Source of the DNA: an uncultured Candidatus Saccharibacteria bacterium
GTDB lineage: Bacteria > Patescibacteriota > Minisyncoccia > Phycocordibacterales > UBA2100
Direction: 5' to 3'
NCBI GenBank assembly: GCA_964424265.1
Contig: CAYRHX010000001.1
Span: forward strand, 64,498-128,497
DNA: 64,000 nucleotides
The notes below the pieces were generated by a model. That model was not told where the DNA came from. It ran no database searches and worked only from the letters and a program-made list of their open reading frames with translations. Below are positions 1,788 through 49,583 of this stretch, one piece after another; within the stretch, counting starts at the first letter, position 1; every line of letters starts with the position of its first letter. Made by a program: the position numbers and the translations under genes.

Positions 1788-3614
1788 CTACTCCACCGTC
1801 ACTGACTTCGCGAGATTTCTTGGGCGGTCGACGTTGAGGCCTTTTTCCTTTGCCACATAGTAAGCGAATAGTTGGAGCGGAACGACGTTGAGAATTGGTG
1901 AGAGCATCTCGATGGTCTGCGGCACGTAGATGACATCATCGGCGAGCTTTGCGATCTCCGTGTCCCCTTCCGTAGCTACCGCAATCACCGGCCCTTTGCG
2001 CGCCTTAATCTCGTGAATATTTGAGATCATCTTTTCGTACATACTGTCGTGGGTCGCGAGAGCCATTGTGGGAAATTTTTCGTCGATCATCGCAATCGGC
2101 CCGTGCTTCATTTCACCGGCACCACACCCTTCAGCATGAATGTATGAAATTTCCTTGAGCTTGATAGCTCCTTCGTAAGCGATCGGAAAATTATACTTGC
2201 GACCGATGTAGAGAAAATCGTGGACGTGCGCATACTTCTTTGCGAGAGATTGAATTGAGTCTTTACCGTCGAGAATCTTCTGCACCTTTTCGGGAAGCTC
2301 TCTGAGTGCCTTTGCGATTTCCTTCCCCGTTGCTTCCGACATTCCACGTTGTCTCCCCAAAAATATCGTGAAGAGCGCGAGGGCGGTCATCTGCGAAAGC
2401 ATCGCCTTGGTCGAAGCCACGCTGATCTCAGGGCCCGCGTGATTATAGACACCCGCGTCTGTCTCACGTGCGATGGTACTCCCCACGGTATTTACGATGC
2501 CGATCGTGAGCGCGCCGCGCCGCTTGCCCTCGCGAATCGCTTCGAGCGTGTCAAGCGTCTCACCTGATTGAGAAATACCAATCACCGCAGTCCTCTCGTT
2601 GATAACAGATTTTCGATAGCGGAATTCTGATCCGATCTCCACCTCGACAGGAATGCCTGCGTATTCTTCGAGCATGTATTCGCCTATGAGGCCTGCATAG
2701 TACGCCGTGCCGCATGCAACGATAATGATGCGCTCGATCTTTTCCAACTGCGGCGTAACAGTCTCAAGGCCTCCGAGCTTTGCGAGGCCTTTGTCCATAA
2801 TTAAGCGGCCACGCAATGTGTTGATGACGACTTCGGGTGCTTCCATAATTTCCTTGAGCATGAAGTGTTCGTAGCCACCCTTTTGTACCGCCTCGGCACT
2901 CCAATCAATGTCCGTCGCCTCGCGCTTTACCTTGGTCTCATCGAGTTTGAAGATGCGGTGGCCATCGGGCGATATCACCGCCACTTCGCCATCCTCAAGA
3001 AATACGACCTTACGAGTGTGGGGCAAGATCGGCGATGGATCGGATGCGATGAAATGCTCTCCGTCACCAAGCCCCAATACAATCGGTGAACCCATACGAG
3101 CGGCGATGATTCGATCGGGTTCTTTTTTGTATTGCAGAGCGATGCCGTAGGTCCCCCTCACCTCATTGAGCGCAAGCAGTGCTGCTTTCTCAAAATCTTT
3201 TGTGTGTTTCAAGTGTTCCTCGACGAGGTGCGCAAGCACTTCGGTATCGGTCTTTGATTTAAATTCGTGACCCGCGGCGATGAGTTTCTTTTTCAAATCT
3301 TTGAAATTTTCGATAATGCCGTTGTGCACCACCCATATCTCGCCCGTCGAGTCTGAGTGCGGATGCGCATTCGCCTCTGTCGGCTCACCGTGGGTCGCCC
3401 AGCGCAAGTGCGCGATGCCACTTTTGCCTTCAAAACCCTTGGGTATTTTTGCGCGCAACTCTGCAACTGCCCCTGGCGTCCTCACGCTTCCGCTCTCAGG
3501 AGTGTAGATACCTGCCGAGTCGTAACCGCGGTATTCGAGACTCAAAAGCCCATCAAGAAGCAGGTGGCTTGCCTCTTTTCCTTTATTCCCCGTATACGCA
3601 AAAATCCCACACAT
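1788..3614 (-). CDS. glmS: Glutamine--fructose-6-phosphate aminotransferase
   Basis: Starts MCGIFAY, with the Ntn-hydrolase Cys2. Two SIS domains follow and the protein ends ...VDRPRNLAKSVTVE. Length 608 aa. Confidence 0.95.
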   Translation of the reverse strand: MCGIFAYTGNKGKEASHLLLDGLLSLEYRGYDSAGIYTPESGSVRTPGAVAELRAKIPKGFEGKSGIAHLRWATHGEPTEANAHPHSDSTGEIWVVHNGIIENFKDLKKKLIAAGHEFKSKTDTEVLAHLVEEHLKHTKDFEKAALLALNEVRGTYGIALQYKKEPDRIIAARMGSPIVLGLGDGEHFIASDPSPILPHTRKVVFLEDGEVAVISPDGHRIFKLDETKVKREATDIDWSAEAVQKGGYEHFMLKEIMEAPEVVINTLRGRLIMDKGLAKLGGLETVTPQLEKIERIIIVACGTAYYAGLIGEYMLEEYAGIPVEVEIGSEFRYRKSVINERTAVIGISQSGETLDTLEAIREGKRRGALTIGIVNTVGSTIARETDAGVYNHAGPEISVASTKAMLSQMTALALFTIFLGRQRGMSEATGKEIAKALRELPEKVQKILDGKDSIQSLAKKYAHVHDFLYIGRKYNFPIAYEGAIKLKEISYIHAEGCGAGEMKHGPIAMIDEKFPTMALATHDSMYEKMISNIHEIKARKGPVIAVATEGDTEIAKLADDVIYVPQTIEMLSPILNVVPLQLFAYYVAKEKGLNVDRPRNLAKSVTVE

Positions 3615-43992: not shown

Positions 43993-44059
43993 ATTTATGT
44001 AAAAGGCAATGCCAAGCTCATTGTGCGCATTTAGGGACTAGGTCACAAATATCTCCTCG

Positions 44060-44330
44060 CCGCCGCTCGGACATTCCGCGACCCCGGCTCGCGGTTCGAC
44101 CTACTAGCCTCACGTCGCTCCGCCCTTCGAGTCCCTGCACTCTGCTGCAGAAATATAGTCGACCGACGCTCCGCGTCGTTCTCTTTATTTTTGCGCGAGT
44201 GAGACTCGGTCACAGATAATTCGTTTGCCGTTGCAAGCGAATTTCCGCGACCCCGACTCGGCGACCCGTTTGCTAACGGGTACCCCGCCTCCTTCTTTCG
44301 AGTTCCTTCACTTCGCTCCAAAATACAACA
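44060..44330. repeat. Degenerate tandem duplication carrying tRNA-Asp-derived fragments
   Basis: Two diverged ~80-nt units start at 44068 and 44243; each begins TTCCGCGACCCCG and contains CTTCGAGT(C/T)CCT(G/T)CACT(C)T(G)C, which resembles the tRNA-Asp T-arm/acceptor 3' half in inverted orientation. A direct partial copy of the tRNA-Asp 3' end (TTTTGCGCGAGTGAGACTCG) lies at 44189-44215. Confidence 0.5.
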
Positions 44331-44354: not shown

Positions 44355-44363
44355 GGCGTTTTG

Positions 44364-44437
44364 CGCGAGTGAAGGGACTCGAACCCTCGACCTTTCCCGT
44401 GACAGGGGAACGCTCTAACCAGCTGAGCTACACCCGC
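44364..44437 (-). tRNA. tRNA-Asp (anticodon GTC)
   Basis: Minus-strand cloverleaf GCGGGTG...TTCCC-CTGTCAC-GGGAA...GAGGG-TTCGAGT-CCCTT-CACTCGC-G. Length 74 nt. Discriminator G, as in bacterial tRNA-Asp. Confidence 0.9.
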
Positions 44438-44518: not shown

Positions 44519-44590
44519 TGCCGACGGCAGGGATCGAACCTGCGGCCCAGCCCTTATGAAAGGCTTGCTCTGCCACTGAGCTACGTCGGC
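44519..44590 (-). tRNA. tRNA with CAT anticodon: elongator Met or lysidine-modified Ile2
   Basis: Minus-strand cloverleaf GCCGACG...AGCCT-TTCATAA-GGGCT...GCAGG-TTCGATC-CCTGC-CGTCGGC-A. G1:C72 is paired, so it is not an initiator. Length 72 nt. Confidence 0.8.
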
Positions 44591-45279
44591 CTCTTGGGAT
44601 GCGCACCGAGTGCATCTATATAACCGAGAATTTTGTATTTCAAATCCGTCCCCCTTCTCACCCGCAGTGCTAAGACACCATAATACGAATTATGATTTTC
44701 GTAAACCTTCTTGTTCTTTACTTTTATGAACACGACCTTCCGAAATTGATTATACGGCATCTCAAGCAAGCGGGACCAGAATTGCATGATGACCCTCTCT
44801 CGCGATCGGTGTGATTCGTTGATAAACACCTGAGGTCGAAACATTTCCCTTGGGACACCGAAAACTAGTCGGAACCATTCCAGCATAAAGAGAACGAGGC
44901 CGGGATCTGAATTTGATATTGCCACCGTCCCCTTTCCTTTTATCCCCTCACCCCAATACACGCCGAGTCCTGCAAGAAAAATCTCGCGACGAGTCAGTAC
45001 GTGAAAATCACGGTACGCTTCGGCACGATGCCGAGCAATCGTGTCTTCTTTCTTCTTTTGATTCGTAGCTGCCCCATTGAGTTGCCCTCGCCGAACACCT
45101 CTCTCAGCACGCCTCATGAGTGTGTCTTTCTGCTTTTCGGTCAAAGCTATGTCTGAGCACCACACGCTAACGCTCGCACGAGAAACGCCGAGCTCGGTGG
45201 CAATCGAACGAATTCCCCATCCCTTCTTCCGAAGGACACGCGCACTAATCCGTTTTTCAGACTTTGCCATTATGTGCAT
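44581..45279 (-). CDS. HTH plus LAGLIDADG-like (homing-endonuclease-like) domain protein
   Basis: N-terminal transposase/resolvase-type HTH (RVLRKKGWGIRSIATELGVSRASVSVW). It is followed by FLAGLGVYWGEGIKGKGTVAISNSDPGLVLFMLEWF, which resembles a single LAGLIDADG motif with the following beta-strands. The 3' end overlaps the tRNA-CAT 5' end by about 10 nt. Confidence 0.45.
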   Translation of the reverse strand: MHIMAKSEKRISARVLRKKGWGIRSIATELGVSRASVSVWCSDIALTEKQKDTLMRRAERGVRRGQLNGAATNQKKKEDTIARHRAEAYRDFHVLTRREIFLAGLGVYWGEGIKGKGTVAISNSDPGLVLFMLEWFRLVFGVPREMFRPQVFINESHRSRERVIMQFWSRLLEMPYNQFRKVVFIKVKNKKVYENHNSYYGVLALRVRRGTDLKYKILGYIDALGAHPKRPT

Positions 45280-45630: not shown

Positions 45631-46146
45631 TTATGTTTTACTTGCCCTAGTTAAATATTCTGAAAATGCAATCCCCATAGCAGCAAACACGAACAGCACG
45701 TGGATAAGAACGACTACAGCAATATCTTTCACTGGCATACTCCCCTGTAGGTAGGTCTTGAGTGCGTGAACGCCAGAGATAGAAATAATTGCGAAAGCGA
45801 GCTTCAACTTCAGATTATAGGTGTTTACATGATCTAACCAATCGGGTTTAGTAATCTCTTTTCCCTCAAAATGGGCATTTGTTACAAAAAGAGAGAAACC
45901 CGCGAGTGCTACGACCCACACGAGTTGAGCAACCATTGTGATATCTACAAGCTCGAGAACTTTGATAATCAGGTCAATCTTTCCGATCTCTTGACCCAGA
46001 ACTGATACGAGGAGGTGCAGGATCTCCAAGCTGAATTTCCAAAGAATGGCAAGTAAAATTATGATTAGCCCAATATAAAAGAAAGACATGACAAATCGCA
46101 TCTTAAAAAGCGTTTCTCCGACAAAGGCAAGAAGAGTTCTTTCCAT
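45631..46146 (-). CDS. UPF0114/YqhA-family membrane protein
   Basis: MERTLL start and LIIKVLELVDITMVAQLVWVVALAGF ... ISISGVHALKTYL match the YqhA pattern of about 165 aa with four TM helices. Confidence 0.6.
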   Translation of the reverse strand: MERTLLAFVGETLFKMRFVMSFFYIGLIIILLAILWKFSLEILHLLVSVLGQEIGKIDLIIKVLELVDITMVAQLVWVVALAGFSLFVTNAHFEGKEITKPDWLDHVNTYNLKLKLAFAIISISGVHALKTYLQGSMPVKDIAVVVLIHVLFVFAAMGIAFSEYLTRASKT

Positions 46147-46296
46147 GAAGCTATACTAACGACACGACTCCTATTTGCAAGCCCGCACGCGTGTAAAGCA
46201 GTTTGCTCGCTCCCCGCACAATCAAAATACCGAAAAACCTCCCGCACGGAGAGGCTTTTCTGTACTTGTTGCACTCATAGGACGGGTGGCATCTGC

Positions 46297-46821
46297 TTAT
46301 CGAATGGCGGCAGTCGGCACGTGCCGTGCTTGAGTGTTAGTAGTAGCGAGCCGAATGAGGTTCTCGGGAGTCAAACTTGAAGCAACGAAATCCCTGACCT
46401 TACCCCAGTCTTTAAAAGTGAATTTATAAGGTGCGCTCGGCTTGACCAGGAGAGGAATCTCTAGGCGCGAATACTGTCCGACTTCTTTTGGAACAATGTA
46501 ATTGCCTGGCTCTATATCCATTTCTTTGGTTGCATCGAGTTTTGAAGCGTCGTATCCGTTTATATCTTGCTTAGGTACACGAACTGTCACGATATTCCCT
46601 CCGGGTTTTCGTGTGTTAATGTAGGCCGATAAGTCGCCCAAATTGCTAGTGAACCACGTACCCACGAGATCTCTTTTGCTTACATCTCCCTCCCTTCTTT
46701 CGTCGTATGCCTCGGTTGGTTTTTCATAGCGATACAGTGTGACATATTGCTCATCGCGGTACACGTCGGCTACAGTTCGCTCCACTGGTTTATCTACCTT
46801 TTCTGCGCGTGCTCTTTCCAC
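46297..46821 (-). CDS. Hypothetical protein (track start codon is GTG)
   Basis: 174 aa, hydrophilic, with no recognisable motifs. Confidence 0.45.
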   Translation of the reverse strand: MERARAEKVDKPVERTVADVYRDEQYVTLYRYEKPTEAYDERREGDVSKRDLVGTWFTSNLGDLSAYINTRKPGGNIVTVRVPKQDINGYDASKLDATKEMDIEPGNYIVPKEVGQYSRLEIPLLVKPSAPYKFTFKDWGKVRDFVASSLTPENLIRLATTNTQARHVPTAAIR

Positions 46822-47044
46822 ACAGAAATAGTACCACGCACTCTAAAGCGTGCTGATGACCAACCCAGTCCTATTTACTACTCTTCGTGTTGCGGGGGGA
46901 GGCTCGGTCACCTCGAAATTGCGCCGTCGCACAATTTCTCCTCGACCCCGGAATTTTGGTTTTGCCTACTGACAAAACATCATAATTCCTTGCAAGTCCT
47001 CACACGAGGCGCGCAGGCGCCTCGTTCCTCGCACAATCCCAACA

Positions 47045-47084
47045 CTGAAAAAGCTCTCGACGAGCGAGAGCCTTTTCAGTTTTT
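47045..47084 (+). terminator. Intrinsic terminator on the plus strand; second copy of the repeated element
   Basis: CTGAAAAAGCTCTCG-acgag-CGAGAGCCTTTTCAG followed by TTTTTGTTG. There is no upstream plus-strand ORF, which suggests a non-coding transcript. Confidence 0.55.
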
Positions 47085-47090
47085 GTTGCG

Positions 47091-47403
47091 GGGGCAGGAC
47101 TTGCACCTGCGACCTCAAGGTTATGCATACCACTTCGACTTTGGCCGCGGCAAATCCCATAAAATTCACAGGACGCCTTCGTGGTCTGGACTATACCTTC
47201 ATCCCGTCGAATTGCCATTGCGGCAATCAGTCGGGAGCCTGCCATCTAGTCTCTACACCTTCTCTTCGATTTCTCTCAGAGCTTGGCTCGGTATTGCCAC
47301 TTCGCACAGCGGAAGAGGTTTCACCGAATTTGACAAGTGTTCCGATCACAATTACTCGTGAGCGAGCCCAATGTGAGCCTTGCGAGCTACTACTGCTCCA
47401 CCC
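47091..47403 (+). ncRNA. Structured RNA with tRNA-like termini; tentative tmRNA (ssrA) candidate
   Basis: 5' GGGGCAG at 47091 pairs with 3' CTGCTCC at 47393-47399, including a G3:U70 wobble. Discriminator A and CC follow. CAAGGTTATGCATACC resembles the E. coli tmRNA PK1 segment CAAGGUGCAUGCC. The region is ORF-free and hairpin-rich. No canonical T-arm or ...AA-stop tag frame was found, and the strand assignment is uncertain. Confidence 0.3.
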
Positions 47404-47458
47404 CGCTGCGAGAAATATACTACAAAAAGGTAGGAGCGCAATGTTCCGGAGGAAAAAA

Positions 47459-48160
47459 TTACTGGATGTAGTGAAATTCTCTCAGAACTCTCTCATACAA
47501 AGCGATGACGCGTCGTATCTCGCGCTCGGTCATCGTGTGAGCGTCGCCGTCGTGAGCAATCCTATTGCGCACTTTGTGCGCTTCCCAGGCAAGATCAATC
47601 GTATTGAAATTTGCCCGATCAACATTGCGCATTTTGTCGGCCATAGTTTCTCCTTTGTACCCCAAAACGTCGAGAAGTTCATTGAGCATGATGTCCGCTT
47701 CAAGTATTGCGAGGCGCGCCGCCTTTGGGTTATCACCCGATACCTGCTCAAGAATCCTATTCCACCGAAGCTGCACCTTAGGCGTGTCGTGTGCGGCTAC
47801 TGCATTTTGCGCTGCAGCAAATCGATGTCGCTCCTTCTGACGTATTTGAAAGACACGAACACAGCAATAAATGATGAGCGCGATGAAAGATAGCGAAAAT
47901 AGGAGTGAGAACGCAACAAACGTGCTCCATTTATGGAAAATGGCATCGTAGGCCCCTGGAGCAGAGGCCATCTGGAGGTATTCGACAACCTGAGGCGCGC
48001 TCACAGGAGTGGTGATGATGGTAGTAACTGGGTCTGGCCCACTACCCGCACCTGTGCCCACGATAGATGCCACGGTACCCGGCACCCACTTGAACGCGAG
48101 TTCGCTCAAAAACCAGAGCGACCAACCGATTGAACCGTCGGTAGTAAGTGTTGGCTCCAT
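47459..48160 (-). CDS. Membrane-anchored HEPN/DUF4145-like domain protein
   Basis: N-terminal TM helices. C-terminal about 110 aa read AARLAILEADIMLNELL ... WEAHKVRNRIAHDGDAHTMTEREIRRVIALYERVL, containing the HEPN R-x4-H motif (RNRIAH). Confidence 0.5.
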   Translation of the reverse strand: MEPTLTTDGSIGWSLWFLSELAFKWVPGTVASIVGTGAGSGPDPVTTIITTPVSAPQVVEYLQMASAPGAYDAIFHKWSTFVAFSLLFSLSFIALIIYCCVRVFQIRQKERHRFAAAQNAVAAHDTPKVQLRWNRILEQVSGDNPKAARLAILEADIMLNELLDVLGYKGETMADKMRNVDRANFNTIDLAWEAHKVRNRIAHDGDAHTMTEREIRRVIALYERVLREFHYIQ

Positions 48161-48167
48161 GCGTGGA

Positions 48168-49583
48168 TTATACCGCTATTTTTTCAACTTCCCTTCCAAG
48201 AATACATGCCGCATCTTCGTTCCCCCATTCAGAGATGAGCTGAAAACCGATTGGGAGCTTGCAGCCGTCGCGCACAACCGTACCTGAAGGTACTGAGATG
48301 GCGGGAATCCCCGCGAGGTTGACGGGCACGGTAAAAATATCGGCAGCATACATCGCAAGAGGATCAGACTTTTCACCCAGTTTCCACGCTGGCACAGGGC
48401 TCGTGGGCAACGCTATCGCATCGACGGATTCAAACGCTTTCGCAAAATCCCGTCGGATAACCTCCCGCACCGCACGTGCTTTACGATAGTATGCATCGAC
48501 ATACCCCGAAGAGAGCACGAATGTCCCTAAGACGATGCGGCGACGCGTCTCAGGGCCGAAGCCAGCAGCGCGACTCTTGGCATACACATCAAAAATGGTA
48601 TCGGCGTCGACAGACAAACCGTATCTAATTCCGTCGAATCGCGCCAAGTTGGTCGACACCTCTGCCGGGTTGACGATGTAATAGACAGCGAGCGCGTACG
48701 CGAGCGTGGGCAACTCAATATCAACAATTGAATACCCGGTTTTCTCCAAAGCGGCAAGGGTGATTTCAAACTGCGCACGCACATCCGTATCTATCCCCTC
48801 TTTGAGAGATGCGCGTGGCACGCCAATTTTTTTTGGAATTTTCGCGCTGTGGGGAATCTTGGGAAGAGATGTCGAATCGTTTTCATCGTACCCCTGAATC
48901 ACCCCGAGTACCATCCGCGCGTCTTCGATGGTCTTGCCGATAACACCAATTTGATCGAGTGATGAGGCGGCCGCAATCAGGCCAAATCGCGAAACAGCTC
49001 CGTACGTCGGCTTAAGACCGACGACTCCACAAAAGGCTGCGGGCTGGCGAATTGAGCCACCCGTATCGCTTCCGAGTGCAGCGAGCGCCATGCCCGAGGC
49101 AACGGCCGCGGCCGAACCACCCGAGGTACCACCCGGTACCCGCGAGAGATCGTGAGGGTTTCGGGTGGGGCCATAGGCTGAATTTTCGGTCGATCCCCCG
49201 AGCGCGAATTCGTCCATGTTGGTGCGACCGAGAAACACAGCTCCCTGCTCTTTCAGTTTCGTGACGACCGTCGCGTCGTATGACGCGACGTATTTCTCGA
49301 GCATTTTCGATGCAGCACTCGCGATACGTCCTTCTATAAGAATGTTGTCCTTGATCGCGATTGGTATGCCGGTAAGCGGCATCGCCTTCCCCCCTGCAAT
49401 TATTTCATCAGCAGCCCGAGCCTCCTTTCTCGCTGAATCGGCCCACACTTCGAGGTATGCATGAATCTCGCCGTCTCTTTTTGCGATGCGATCGAGATAC
49501 GCATTGGTCAGATCGAACGCCGTGTATTCCTTGGCGTCGAGCGCGCGGCGCGCTTCCACTATGGTGAGCGTATCGAGGTTCAT
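48168..49583 (-). CDS. gatA: Glu-tRNA(Gln)/Asp-tRNA(Asn) amidotransferase subunit A
   Basis: Amidase signature GGSSGGSAAAVASGMA with a Ser-cisSer-Lys triad context. Length 471 aa. Confidence 0.9.
   Translation of the reverse strand: MNLDTLTIVEARRALDAKEYTAFDLTNAYLDRIAKRDGEIHAYLEVWADSARKEARAADEIIAGGKAMPLTGIPIAIKDNILIEGRIASAASKMLEKYVASYDATVVTKLKEQGAVFLGRTNMDEFALGGSTENSAYGPTRNPHDLSRVPGGTSGGSAAAVASGMALAALGSDTGGSIRQPAAFCGVVGLKPTYGAVSRFGLIAAASSLDQIGVIGKTIEDARMVLGVIQGYDENDSTSLPKIPHSAKIPKKIGVPRASLKEGIDTDVRAQFEITLAALEKTGYSIVDIELPTLAYALAVYYIVNPAEVSTNLARFDGIRYGLSVDADTIFDVYAKSRAAGFGPETRRRIVLGTFVLSSGYVDAYYRKARAVREVIRRDFAKAFESVDAIALPTSPVPAWKLGEKSDPLAMYAADIFTVPVNLAGIPAISVPSGTVVRDGCKLPIGFQLISEWGNEDAACILGREVEKIAV

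Follow-up and report, generated by a model that had tools for sequence, protein, structure and literature searches.

A 64,000-nucleotide (nt) stretch of Candidatus Saccharibacteria DNA, hereafter the window, whose positions serve as coordinates throughout, was analyzed around 46822-47458, a region for which the original prediction had proposed a possible transfer-messenger RNA (tmRNA). We conclude with high confidence that this region consists of an initiator-type transfer RNA (tRNA)-Met gene split by an intron, its terminator, and then one copy of a family of elements of about 150 nt, all on the minus strand. The whole split gene spans 47407..47086 on that strand and is interrupted between U33 and C34 by an IC3-like group I intron of 250 nt (47126..47375) that carries no open reading frame (ORF). 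Behind the terminator lies the structured element, copy iMet-1 (46888..47034, minus strand, 147 nt), matched to the 3′ end of the tRNA.

Split initiator tRNA-Met gene

Both strands of 46500-47900 were read, and the tRNA-like strings of 46822-47458 all fell on the minus strand. In default mode ARAGORN called five minus-strand tRNAs in the window, and Rfam at gathering thresholds returned the same five together with one group I intron. At E <= 10 on 46700-47600, both strands, Rfam gave only two extra matches, both at chance level, with no tmRNA, RNase P, 6S or signal recognition particle (SRP) RNA. The 5′ exon (47376..47407, minus strand; AGCGGGGTGGAGCAGTAGTAGCTCGCAAGGCT) holds the acceptor 5′ strand, the D-arm, the 5′ strand of the anticodon stem, C32 and U33. 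The 3′ exon (47086..47125, minus strand; CATAACCTTGAGGTCGCAGGTGCAAGTCCTGCCCCCGCAA) holds the anticodon CAU, A37, A38, the 3′ strand of the anticodon stem, the variable loop, the T-arm GCAGG-TGCAAGT-CCTGC, the acceptor 3′ strand and the discriminator A; CCA is not encoded. When the exons were joined in silico, a 72-nt cloverleaf with the anticodon loop CUCAUAA was obtained, and ARAGORN called it tRNA-Met(CAT).

Given the unspliced DNA, ARAGORN in intron mode recovered the split tRNA with a 250-nt intron. It placed the junction three bases further on and mis-named the gene tRNA-Val(CAC), because the junction is ambiguous by sequence alone. The two junctions share CA, so that three placements yield the identical CAU product, and only U33|C34 has U at -1 and an intron-final G. 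U at -1 with a final G is the group I rule behind an established mapping method (Williams 2020, bioRxiv 10.1101/2020.01.27.920355). The junction is also fixed independently of any model by empty sites: the loci L001 and L004, from the closest genomes (GatA 78-80% identical), have the same tRNA uninterrupted, and in the three-way alignment the window intron stands out as 250 nt inserted cleanly between GGCT and CATAA. Relatives with an uninterrupted tRNA at this site have flanking proteins 74-80% identical to those of the window. The spliced tRNA aligned with the uninterrupted orthologues of L001, L004 and others, and it showed strong similarity to E. coli tRNA-fMet.

Several initiator traits are present. 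Positions 1 and 72 are mismatched (A1 x A72 in the window; C1 x A72 in L001 and E. coli), the D-stem GAGC/GCUC contains A11:U24, and the spliced product carries the CAU anticodon. From these traits we infer that the tRNA would be formylated and would function as an initiator. Two features weigh against this assignment: only two of the three canonical G-C pairs of the anticodon stem are present (30-40 and 31-39, with 29-41 being A-U), and position 55 is a G. Both the two-G-C stem and G55 are common to the uninterrupted orthologues of the clade, and since those orthologues have the same anticodon stem, the missing third pair is a clade trait. The clade initiator was also seen to have an unusual T-loop, TGCAAKT with G for U at 55, and a 7-nt D-loop, AGTAGTA, which lacks the usual GG; this form occurs in the window, L001, L004, L006 and many metagenome loci. 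A G55 T-loop is also present in the elongator tRNA-Met of L058.

These results decide most of what the original prediction had claimed. It described a non-coding, densely structured locus of tRNA-like character, and this description was borne out by folding beyond that of shuffled sequences and by the tRNA, intron and element found here. It also held that no credible protein is encoded at 46822-47458. The long plus-strand ORFs in this region, including the two it dismissed, 46747-47361 and 47123-47893, are shadows cast by RNA genes and by real genes on the minus strand. Strand and RNA family were rightly left undecided; they proved to be the minus strand and the group I intron family. Neither of the two outcomes it had envisaged for a covariance-model search, a match to its proposed RNA or no significant match at all, was obtained: the significant match is to a group I intron, on the minus strand, in an initiator tRNA gene. 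Covariation among relatives, an analysis it had suggested, was found for the group I intron and the element core.

A tmRNA, or an RNase P, 6S or SRP RNA, with an acceptor stem formed by GGGGCAG (47091) and CTGCTCC (47393) would be in keeping with the tRNA-like strings, the many hairpins and the lack of an ORF, yet it retains virtually no probability. ARAGORN found no tmRNA in the window or in 46822-47458, with or without intron mode, and Rfam at E <= 10 gave none of these RNAs on either strand. As the original prediction had noted, no tag reading frame is present. Although both strings of the supposed acceptor stem exist, their pairing with a G3:U70 wobble was not confirmed. They are the reverse complements of the minus-strand tRNA T-arm and D-arm, and the stem is thus an artefact of reading the wrong strand. 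The segment CAAGGTTATGCATACC, likened to pseudoknot 1 (PK1) of tmRNA, does occur at 47116-47131, as the reverse complement of the intron 3′ end joined to the anticodon (GGTATG|CATAACCTTG), and ATTCGACGGG, correctly placed on the minus strand, lies at 47212..47203 inside intron helix P8. The strong plus-strand terminator put at 47045-47084 has a real hairpin stem (47053-47071), which belongs to the minus-strand tRNA gene and is bidirectional in shape.

Group I intron and its relatives

Rfam matched the intron to RF00028 with 58.3 bits (gathering score 50; E 3e-12) over 47385..47174 on the minus strand. On the same strand, the P1 guide sequence lies within 47375..47365 and P1 includes the invariant U33.G wobble, the P7 strands fall within 47256..47245 and 47197..47183, the L9 tetraloop falls within 47147..47136, and the last intron base, G47126, is the omega-G. 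P1 is formed by GGCU|C pairing with GGGCU; the U.G pair is present in all eight full-length homologues, all of which end in G.

A metagenome scan with a pattern of the clade tRNA 3′ half returned 120 loci. Eight interrupted tRNA genes were called in seven of these loci, one further full copy was missed by ARAGORN, and three were cut off by contig ends. Two more introns came from loci fetched through a neighboring protein. Ten homologous introns were counted at the same site, and their distribution is patchy, with the intron present in three of seven close-relative lineages as sampled through the neighboring gene. Independent short assemblies (contig ends in L229, L230 and L245, and L241) were observed to stop exactly at the exon-intron junction (…GCTCGCAAGG) or at the T-loop start of the repeated 3′-end block. 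Contig ends at such positions are expected for polymorphic or repeated sites, and the breaks at the exon-intron junction in short assemblies of the same strain hint at polymorphism. A different, longer group I-like intron interrupts the initiator tRNA (tRNA-iMet) of L111 at 36/37 (2864-3300, minus strand of the locus; GAGGCCCAT|AAAACT...AAAG|AACCTCG).

Covariation was evaluated in a MAFFT-based alignment of the eight full-length homologues with 8 nt of each exon, on which P1-P9 and P9b were mapped. Across 53 pairs, 90.7% of cells were paired, compared with 28-46% in slid controls, and 20 of the 53 pairs changed on both sides, compared with 4-8; none of 500 shuffles reached the observed values. 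The U.G wobble and five P7 pairs were invariant, while P2, P3, P5, P8 and P9b covaried, and the conserved core helices P3-P8, including the P3/P7 pseudoknot, have covariation support. The intron has persisted in at least 10 lineages and acquired compensatory changes, which indicates that its fold is under purifying selection.

Transcription would start from a promoter just upstream of the tRNA gene, and the intron would then fold into its P1-P9 ribozyme core. An external guanosine would attack after U33, held in the P1 U.G wobble, and the terminal G47126 would subsequently take the place of the guanosine, with ligation of the exons to the 72-nt tRNA. Trimming of the 3′ end and CCA addition would finish the molecule. 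As this is the sole initiator tRNA at a locus conserved across the clade, splicing would have to work. The L9 tetraloop of the window copy counts against this proposal. It is CAAA, whereas GAAA is found in six of the eight homologues and AAAA in L104, and it could weaken the tertiary (tetraloop-receptor) contact. Together with the lack of a homing endonuclease gene, which follows from the finding that no ORF fits in the intron, this tetraloop would suit a pseudogene, that is, a decayed relic with a non-splicing intron while a functional initiator tRNA is encoded elsewhere. Such a pseudogene is nevertheless very improbable. The rest of the window intron core is intact: every core helix is kept, as are the U.G wobble, the P7 pairs and omega-G. 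The exons show no damage and are entirely tRNA-like; the locus is the conserved syntenic position of the initiator tRNA; and homologous introns persist, with compensatory changes, in the lineages counted above.

The window intron was compared by BLAST with the labelled intron sequences of PMC13011429 (Tables S5 and S3). Its best matches were IC3 introns of tRNA-Leu, Ile2, fMet and Lys (E 5e-16 to 2e-10), followed by a Patescibacteria Asp 35/36 intron (E 5e-7), and it matched an IA1 reference (E 0.01) and an IB2 reference (E 0.2) only weakly. We regard it as probably IC3-like, the subgroup being assigned by similarity rather than by subgroup covariance models. A string from the IC3 core sequence had no match in the literature searched. 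Four classical settings of bacterial tRNA introns, including fMet.2Ug (after U33), are all IC3 (Williams 2020, bioRxiv 10.1101/2020.01.27.920355), and tRNA-fMet 33/34 is a common insertion site (Nakagawa et al. 2026, PMC13011429). The survey behind the latter covered 95 complete Patescibacteria genomes and found 22 tRNA introns, two of them in Met(CAU) at 33/34 and both in Microgenomatia; none of the 22 was assigned to subgroup IC (PMC13011429).

Like the IC3 introns of tRNA-fMet 33/34, first described in cyanobacteria, the window intron has the same type of host gene, a site after U33, U at -1 and omega-G. As with the fMet.2Ug introns, no homing endonuclease is needed, and core blocks are held in common with IC3-labelled introns. 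It differs from the classical fMet 33/34 introns in its Saccharibacteria host, a member of the Candidate Phyla Radiation (CPR/Patescibacteria), in the three-way junction at P9 and in the CAAA of L9. With the Patescibacteria introns of PMC13011429 it shares group I membership and a location in the tRNA anticodon loop; unlike them, it is IC3-like, resides in Saccharibacteria and has at least 10 relatives. An intron-split tRNA-fMet at 33/34 is therefore a known kind of arrangement, and the twist is an IC3-like intron in Patescibacteria.

Structured element behind the tRNA gene

Beyond the terminator, the 166 nt of downstream sequence folded with z = -4.9. All parts of iMet-1 lie on the minus strand. 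A 5′ arm (47034..47027) is followed by the P2 hairpin (47025..47004) with the loop CUGC, by the segment AGGACTTGCA (47000..46991), antisense to the T-loop and T-stem of the tRNA, by the P4 hairpin, by the P5 hairpin (46949..46906), and by the 3′ arm. This arm ends in CCCCCGCAACA (46898..46888), which directly repeats the tRNA 3′ end found at 47094..47084. Several of these parts had been glimpsed in the original prediction. The two copies of TGTTGCGGGGG it noted exist on the plus strand, at 46888-46898 and 47084-47094 rather than at 46893 and 47083; the hairpin of ACGAGGCGC and GCGCCTCGT is present at 47004-47025; and GCAAGTCCT (46992-47000, plus strand) faces AGGACTTGC (47096-47104).

About 25-30 copies of the element were recovered in related genomes, from loci selected through tRNA-iMet, and they stand behind tRNA-iMet, elongator Met, Asp, Phe and Arg. 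The 5′ arm is antisense to the last ~17-21 nt of the upstream tRNA gene (T-loop through 3′ end, with 1-7 nt of trailer), and the 3′ arm copies this stretch directly. With one arm antisense and the other sense, the two ends of the element form an inverted repeat of the tRNA 3′ end, and the right arm doubles as a direct repeat. In every genome, the 5′ strand of P3 is an exact antisense (9-13 nt) of that genome's own tRNA T-loop and T-stem 3′ strand, the element 3′ end copies the last 8-19 nt of the tRNA, and both arms track lineage-specific T-stem differences. In the best-preserved copies, P1 pairs the trailer too (GTTGCGGGGG/CCCCCGCAAC in L042). The match holds across tRNA types, with an unchanged architecture, a homologous core and arms fitting the respective tRNA in copies behind elongator tRNA-Met (L058, L107), tRNA-Asp (L020, L058, L110, L233) and tRNA-Phe (L031). 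A second subfamily with a different core (GGGGTCGGGGAACGGGAGTTCCCCGTGGAGGAAGGAATGGGAAAACCGTGGGTTTCCC) was found behind tRNA-Arg (GCG) in L080 and behind tRNA-iMet in L104 and L074 (8019-8388 side), again with matching arms.

When 533 distinct tRNA contexts were scanned without bias, 18 had, in the 160 nt downstream, an antisense copy of 10 nt or more of the 3′ end belonging to that tRNA; the upstream control gave 2 in 512. The downstream antisense copies were paired with direct repeats of 11-19 nt. A core-only profile, from which the arms were left out, gave 23 matches, including two in the window behind tRNA-Asp (E 3e-6 and 1e-4). Besides iMet-1, the window holds three further copies, two behind tRNA-Asp and one decayed. 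The tRNA-Asp gene (44437..44363) is followed by the tandem pair at 44015..44318 (minus strand), whose arms match its 3′ end (Asp-1, 44316..44297 and 44208..44189; Asp-2, 44145..44126 and 44040..44023, minus strand), each copy preceded by a hairpin of its own. The decayed module follows ORF174, a 174-amino-acid (aa) frame at 46297-46821 on the minus strand. It occupies 46161..46283 (minus strand; nhmmer E 8e-4) and retains, on that strand, a degenerate tRNA-3′-end repeat GTCCTATGAGTGCAACA (46283..46267), a terminator (46260..46232) and an element 5′ half (46219..46175).

Seven copies adopted the same five-helix shape by minimum free energy alone: a closing stem P1, a 9-bp hairpin P2 that often has a CUGC loop, P3, P4 with a GGA/GA internal loop, and a long hairpin P5 that often has a GACG loop. 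iMet-1 is conserved in L001 and L004 with compensatory changes, and P2 shows compensatory changes among copies. In whole-element alignments MAFFT mis-registers the variable hairpins and RNAalifold then mis-pairs P3; the core and P2 were tested separately. For the core (16 copies, 23 pairs), 86.7% of cells were paired, compared with 34-48% in slid controls, and 73 cells changed on both sides, compared with 15-32; none of 500 shuffles reached any of the measures. The intron and the element core both exceed all 500 shuffles and all slid controls.

Rfam 15 gave the element no consistent match, whether the window was searched (E <= 10) or five loci that hold clean copies (E <= 1), and no comparable element is described in the part of the literature that our search covered. 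The element family is apparently undescribed. The family exists, its core is structured and its arms match the upstream tRNA, and from these observations we infer the mechanism considered below.

Possible roles of the element and its genomic setting

Our leading but tentative reading, to which we assign slightly less than an even chance, is that the element is a site-specific module of insertion or recombination, non-autonomous and directed to tRNA 3′ ends. The arms would be target copies and the core would serve as a scaffold; the module could duplicate in tandem, and cargo genes such as ORF174 could be inserted at the repeats. Site-specific recombination would explain the tRNA-matched arms because partner sites must share sequence, and a process of insertion or recombination would also account for the sporadic presence of the element among close relatives, for the tandem copies (Asp-1/Asp-2 in the window, L110, L244) and for cargo between repeats. 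ORF174 is bracketed by tRNA-end repeats, like a captured cassette, and the older copy of the module is decaying. Window positions 46300..46140 are colinear with the unit of tRNA 3′ end, trailer, terminator and element 5′ half of L236, L244 and the tRNA-proximal module of the window. Either the module was duplicated together with a copy of the tRNA 3′ end, or a new module and ORF174 were inserted exactly at the tRNA 3′ end.

Several observations count against an insertion or recombination module. Every copy has the orientation of its tRNA; within about 20 kb (26 window ORFs examined) no gene for an integrase, a transposase or any other recombinase was found; and viral contigs yielded no element copy. 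In six of seven copies the given strand folds more favorably than the complementary one, with 20 G.U pairs versus 7, and one G.U pair of the core is kept in 14 of 16 copies. This strand asymmetry is no less compatible with a transcribed RNA than with a DNA site. A phage attachment site (attP) carrying the element was also considered and rejected, as its matches in a viral collection were at chance level and 71 of 85 viral matches to the tRNA 3′ half were whole tRNAs.

The orientation and the strand asymmetry would be natural for a transcribed structured non-coding RNA (ncRNA) of the 3′-trailer or 3′-external transcribed spacer (3′-ETS) type, acting in processing, in stability or as a decoy, with arms that are tRNA-like only through an origin by duplication. 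The element always lies on the tRNA strand, directly behind the tRNA (the spacer is only 13 nt in L058), its CUGC and GACG loops and GGA/GA internal loop are kept, and terminators follow several copies. On the other hand, a strong terminator usually stands ahead of the element with no promoter-like site between. Terminators are often found on both sides. An ncRNA also gives no reason for arms that equal the specific upstream tRNA in five tRNA types and track lineage T-stem changes, and sporadic presence, tandem arrays and cargo at repeats are features of mobile DNA. We consider this explanation rather unlikely. Two related proposals were set aside. A tRNA-like RNA processed by RNase P and finished with CCA does not fit, as P1 reaches into the trailer and leaves no free NCCA-like tail, and the P1/P3 junction is not at the boundary of acceptor and T-stem; a leader or riboswitch for the next gene does not fit either, as the downstream genes are unrelated between loci.

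Alternatively, the element and its repeats might be inert scars of integrative elements, composed of attachment-site (att) duplications and arm fragments that now lack function. Integrases that target tRNA genes reportedly duplicate, as a rule, the segment from the T-loop to the 3′ end, which is the block repeated here; the downstream region is hypervariable, L240 has a large serine recombinase gene a few kb from tRNA-iMet, and decayed copies exist. Scars should decay, yet the core helices are kept behind different tRNAs through many compensatory changes, the loop sequences are conserved, and an att duplication leaves the antisense arm unexplained. An origin as functionless scars is accordingly improbable.

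The insertion or recombination module invites comparison with known folded sites. The attC sites and the CTXphi attP(+) hairpin are imperfect palindromes of ~60-150 nt whose structure is conserved while their sequence varies; inverted target-like copies fold into a duplex, arrays carry cassettes between sites, and recombination is strand-specific. By analogy, the element might likewise be viewed as a folded palindrome with conserved structure, arrays and a strand-specific signal. Unlike attC, it lacks the RYYYAAC/GTTRRRY core motifs, and its arms (GTTGCGGGGG...CCCCCGCAAC) have GTT and AAC in the opposite order. Unlike both systems, it has no IntI or Xer gene nearby and no integrase over the distance given above, its arms equal the tRNA 3′ end and change with the tRNA, and it sits behind a tRNA gene and a terminator. 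With att sites in tRNA genes it shares a direct repeat that takes in the T-loop, the 3′ end and a few bases of trailer, with variable cargo behind it. It differs from them in that only about 150-190 bp separate the repeats, in the conserved folded core, in the extra antisense copy and in having no integrase gene.

Mobile RNAs that combine a guide with a scaffold include the bridge RNA of IS110, group II introns with their pairing of exon- and intron-binding sites (EBS/IBS), and the homing CRISPR RNAs (crRNAs) of CRISPR-associated transposons (CAST) that match tRNA genes. The element may be analogous to these in joining a conserved scaffold to variable target-complementary segments, with tRNA genes among the possible targets. 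The element departs from them in several respects: neither a recombinase nor a transposase was found in association with it, its antisense arm is paired with the sense copy rather than exposed in the predicted fold, and size and fold match no such family in Rfam. A more specific version, which we hold to be doubtful, is that the elements are new programmable tRNA-targeting mobile modules of CPR bacteria, with a P2/P4/P5 scaffold and two exchangeable target-copying arms. These arms would either form a folded single-strand attachment site that mimics the duplex target, in analogy to integron attC or CTXphi attP, or guide a recombinase.

The surroundings of tRNA-iMet are conserved on one side and fluid on the other. 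The order gatA (48168-49583, minus strand), a gene for a 233-aa protein (47459-48160, minus strand; more than 1400 homologues) and tRNA-iMet is kept across the clade. Relatives of GatA assign the window to Candidatus Saccharibacteria, and over 8.7 kb the sequence is identical to its source contig, ENA ERZ27247820 k141_841522. The genes after tRNA-iMet differ completely between loci (L232-L244, 0-4 kb downstream), which marks a gene-flux hotspot. They include genes for Fic, a PIF1-type helicase, an archaeo-eukaryotic primase (AEP)-helicase with a DEAD helicase, NUDIX and a PaaX-like protein, and a PemK toxin gene lies upstream in L233. Rearranged tRNA copies were seen at some loci. In L110 (minus strand), the first 250 nt after tRNA-iMet hold an aberrant second tRNA-iMet-like copy in which an insertion replaces the 5′ strand of the anticodon stem, and tRNA-Asp of the same locus (minus strand) is followed by a tandem array of identical 105-nt units, all of which close with the 3′ end of tRNA-Asp. 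In L049 (5600-6253), a GIY-YIG-like ORF adjoins tRNA-iMet between partial tRNA duplicates (D-arm to 3′ end); this insertion looks like the free-standing homing-endonuclease type that duplicated part of a tRNA.

A 232-aa protein with an N-terminal helix-turn-helix (HTH) is encoded at 44581-45279 (minus strand), beside the tRNA cluster; its C-terminal domain is uncharacterized and carries the invariant motif LYWGEG.K...NSDP. Genes for its homologues (L244, L063, L108, L037, L072, L068 and L074) always end 0-130 nt upstream of a co-oriented tRNA gene, which varies by locus (Met, Thr, Arg), and the family is small, with ~97 clusters. A structural model (predicted local distance difference test, pLDDT, 91) gave no fold match at E <= 0.001, and its LAGLIDADG matches were weak (template-modelling score, TM, 0.3-0.38). 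A hidden homing endonuclease or recombinase in this protein is only a lead.

Expression signals were also noted around the tRNA gene. A putative -10-like promoter element TGTAGTATATT (47414..47424, minus strand) is suggested by sequence just 5′ of the tRNA start. Its position is kept in L004 as TTTTTGTAGTATATT, with a similar element in L001, and a sigma-70 consensus scan made no call at 47414..47424. The tRNA trailer and intrinsic terminator cover 47041..47084 (minus strand), with the stem at 47071..47053 identified by a terminator scan, followed by TTTTTCAGTGTT. In L001 and L004 a hairpin and T-run stand at the same position with different sequences. After the element, a weak terminator-like hairpin (46835..46852, minus strand) overlaps a possible -10 (TGGTACTAT) for ORF174, and its role is uncertain.

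Herein, the intron part of our findings is mainly a matter of annotation. Initiator tRNA genes with an intron are of an ordinary kind but routinely receive wrong annotations, and this essential one is missed by tRNA finders run with default settings. The intron also indicates that tRNA introns of the IC3 type probably do occur in Patescibacteria, namely in Saccharibacteria, where a recent complete-genome survey found none. The element part could matter more, with its conserved scaffold and target-tracking arms behind at least five tRNA types. It may represent a new small mobile or recombination module of the ultra-small CPR genomes, or else a new class of tRNA-linked ncRNA. If the programmable modules proposed above were real, tRNA 3′ ends would serve as integron-like landing pads where modules accumulate in tandem and small gene cassettes, ORF174 among them, are picked up. 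On either reading, mobile module or ncRNA, the element marks where reduced genomes gain and lose genes.

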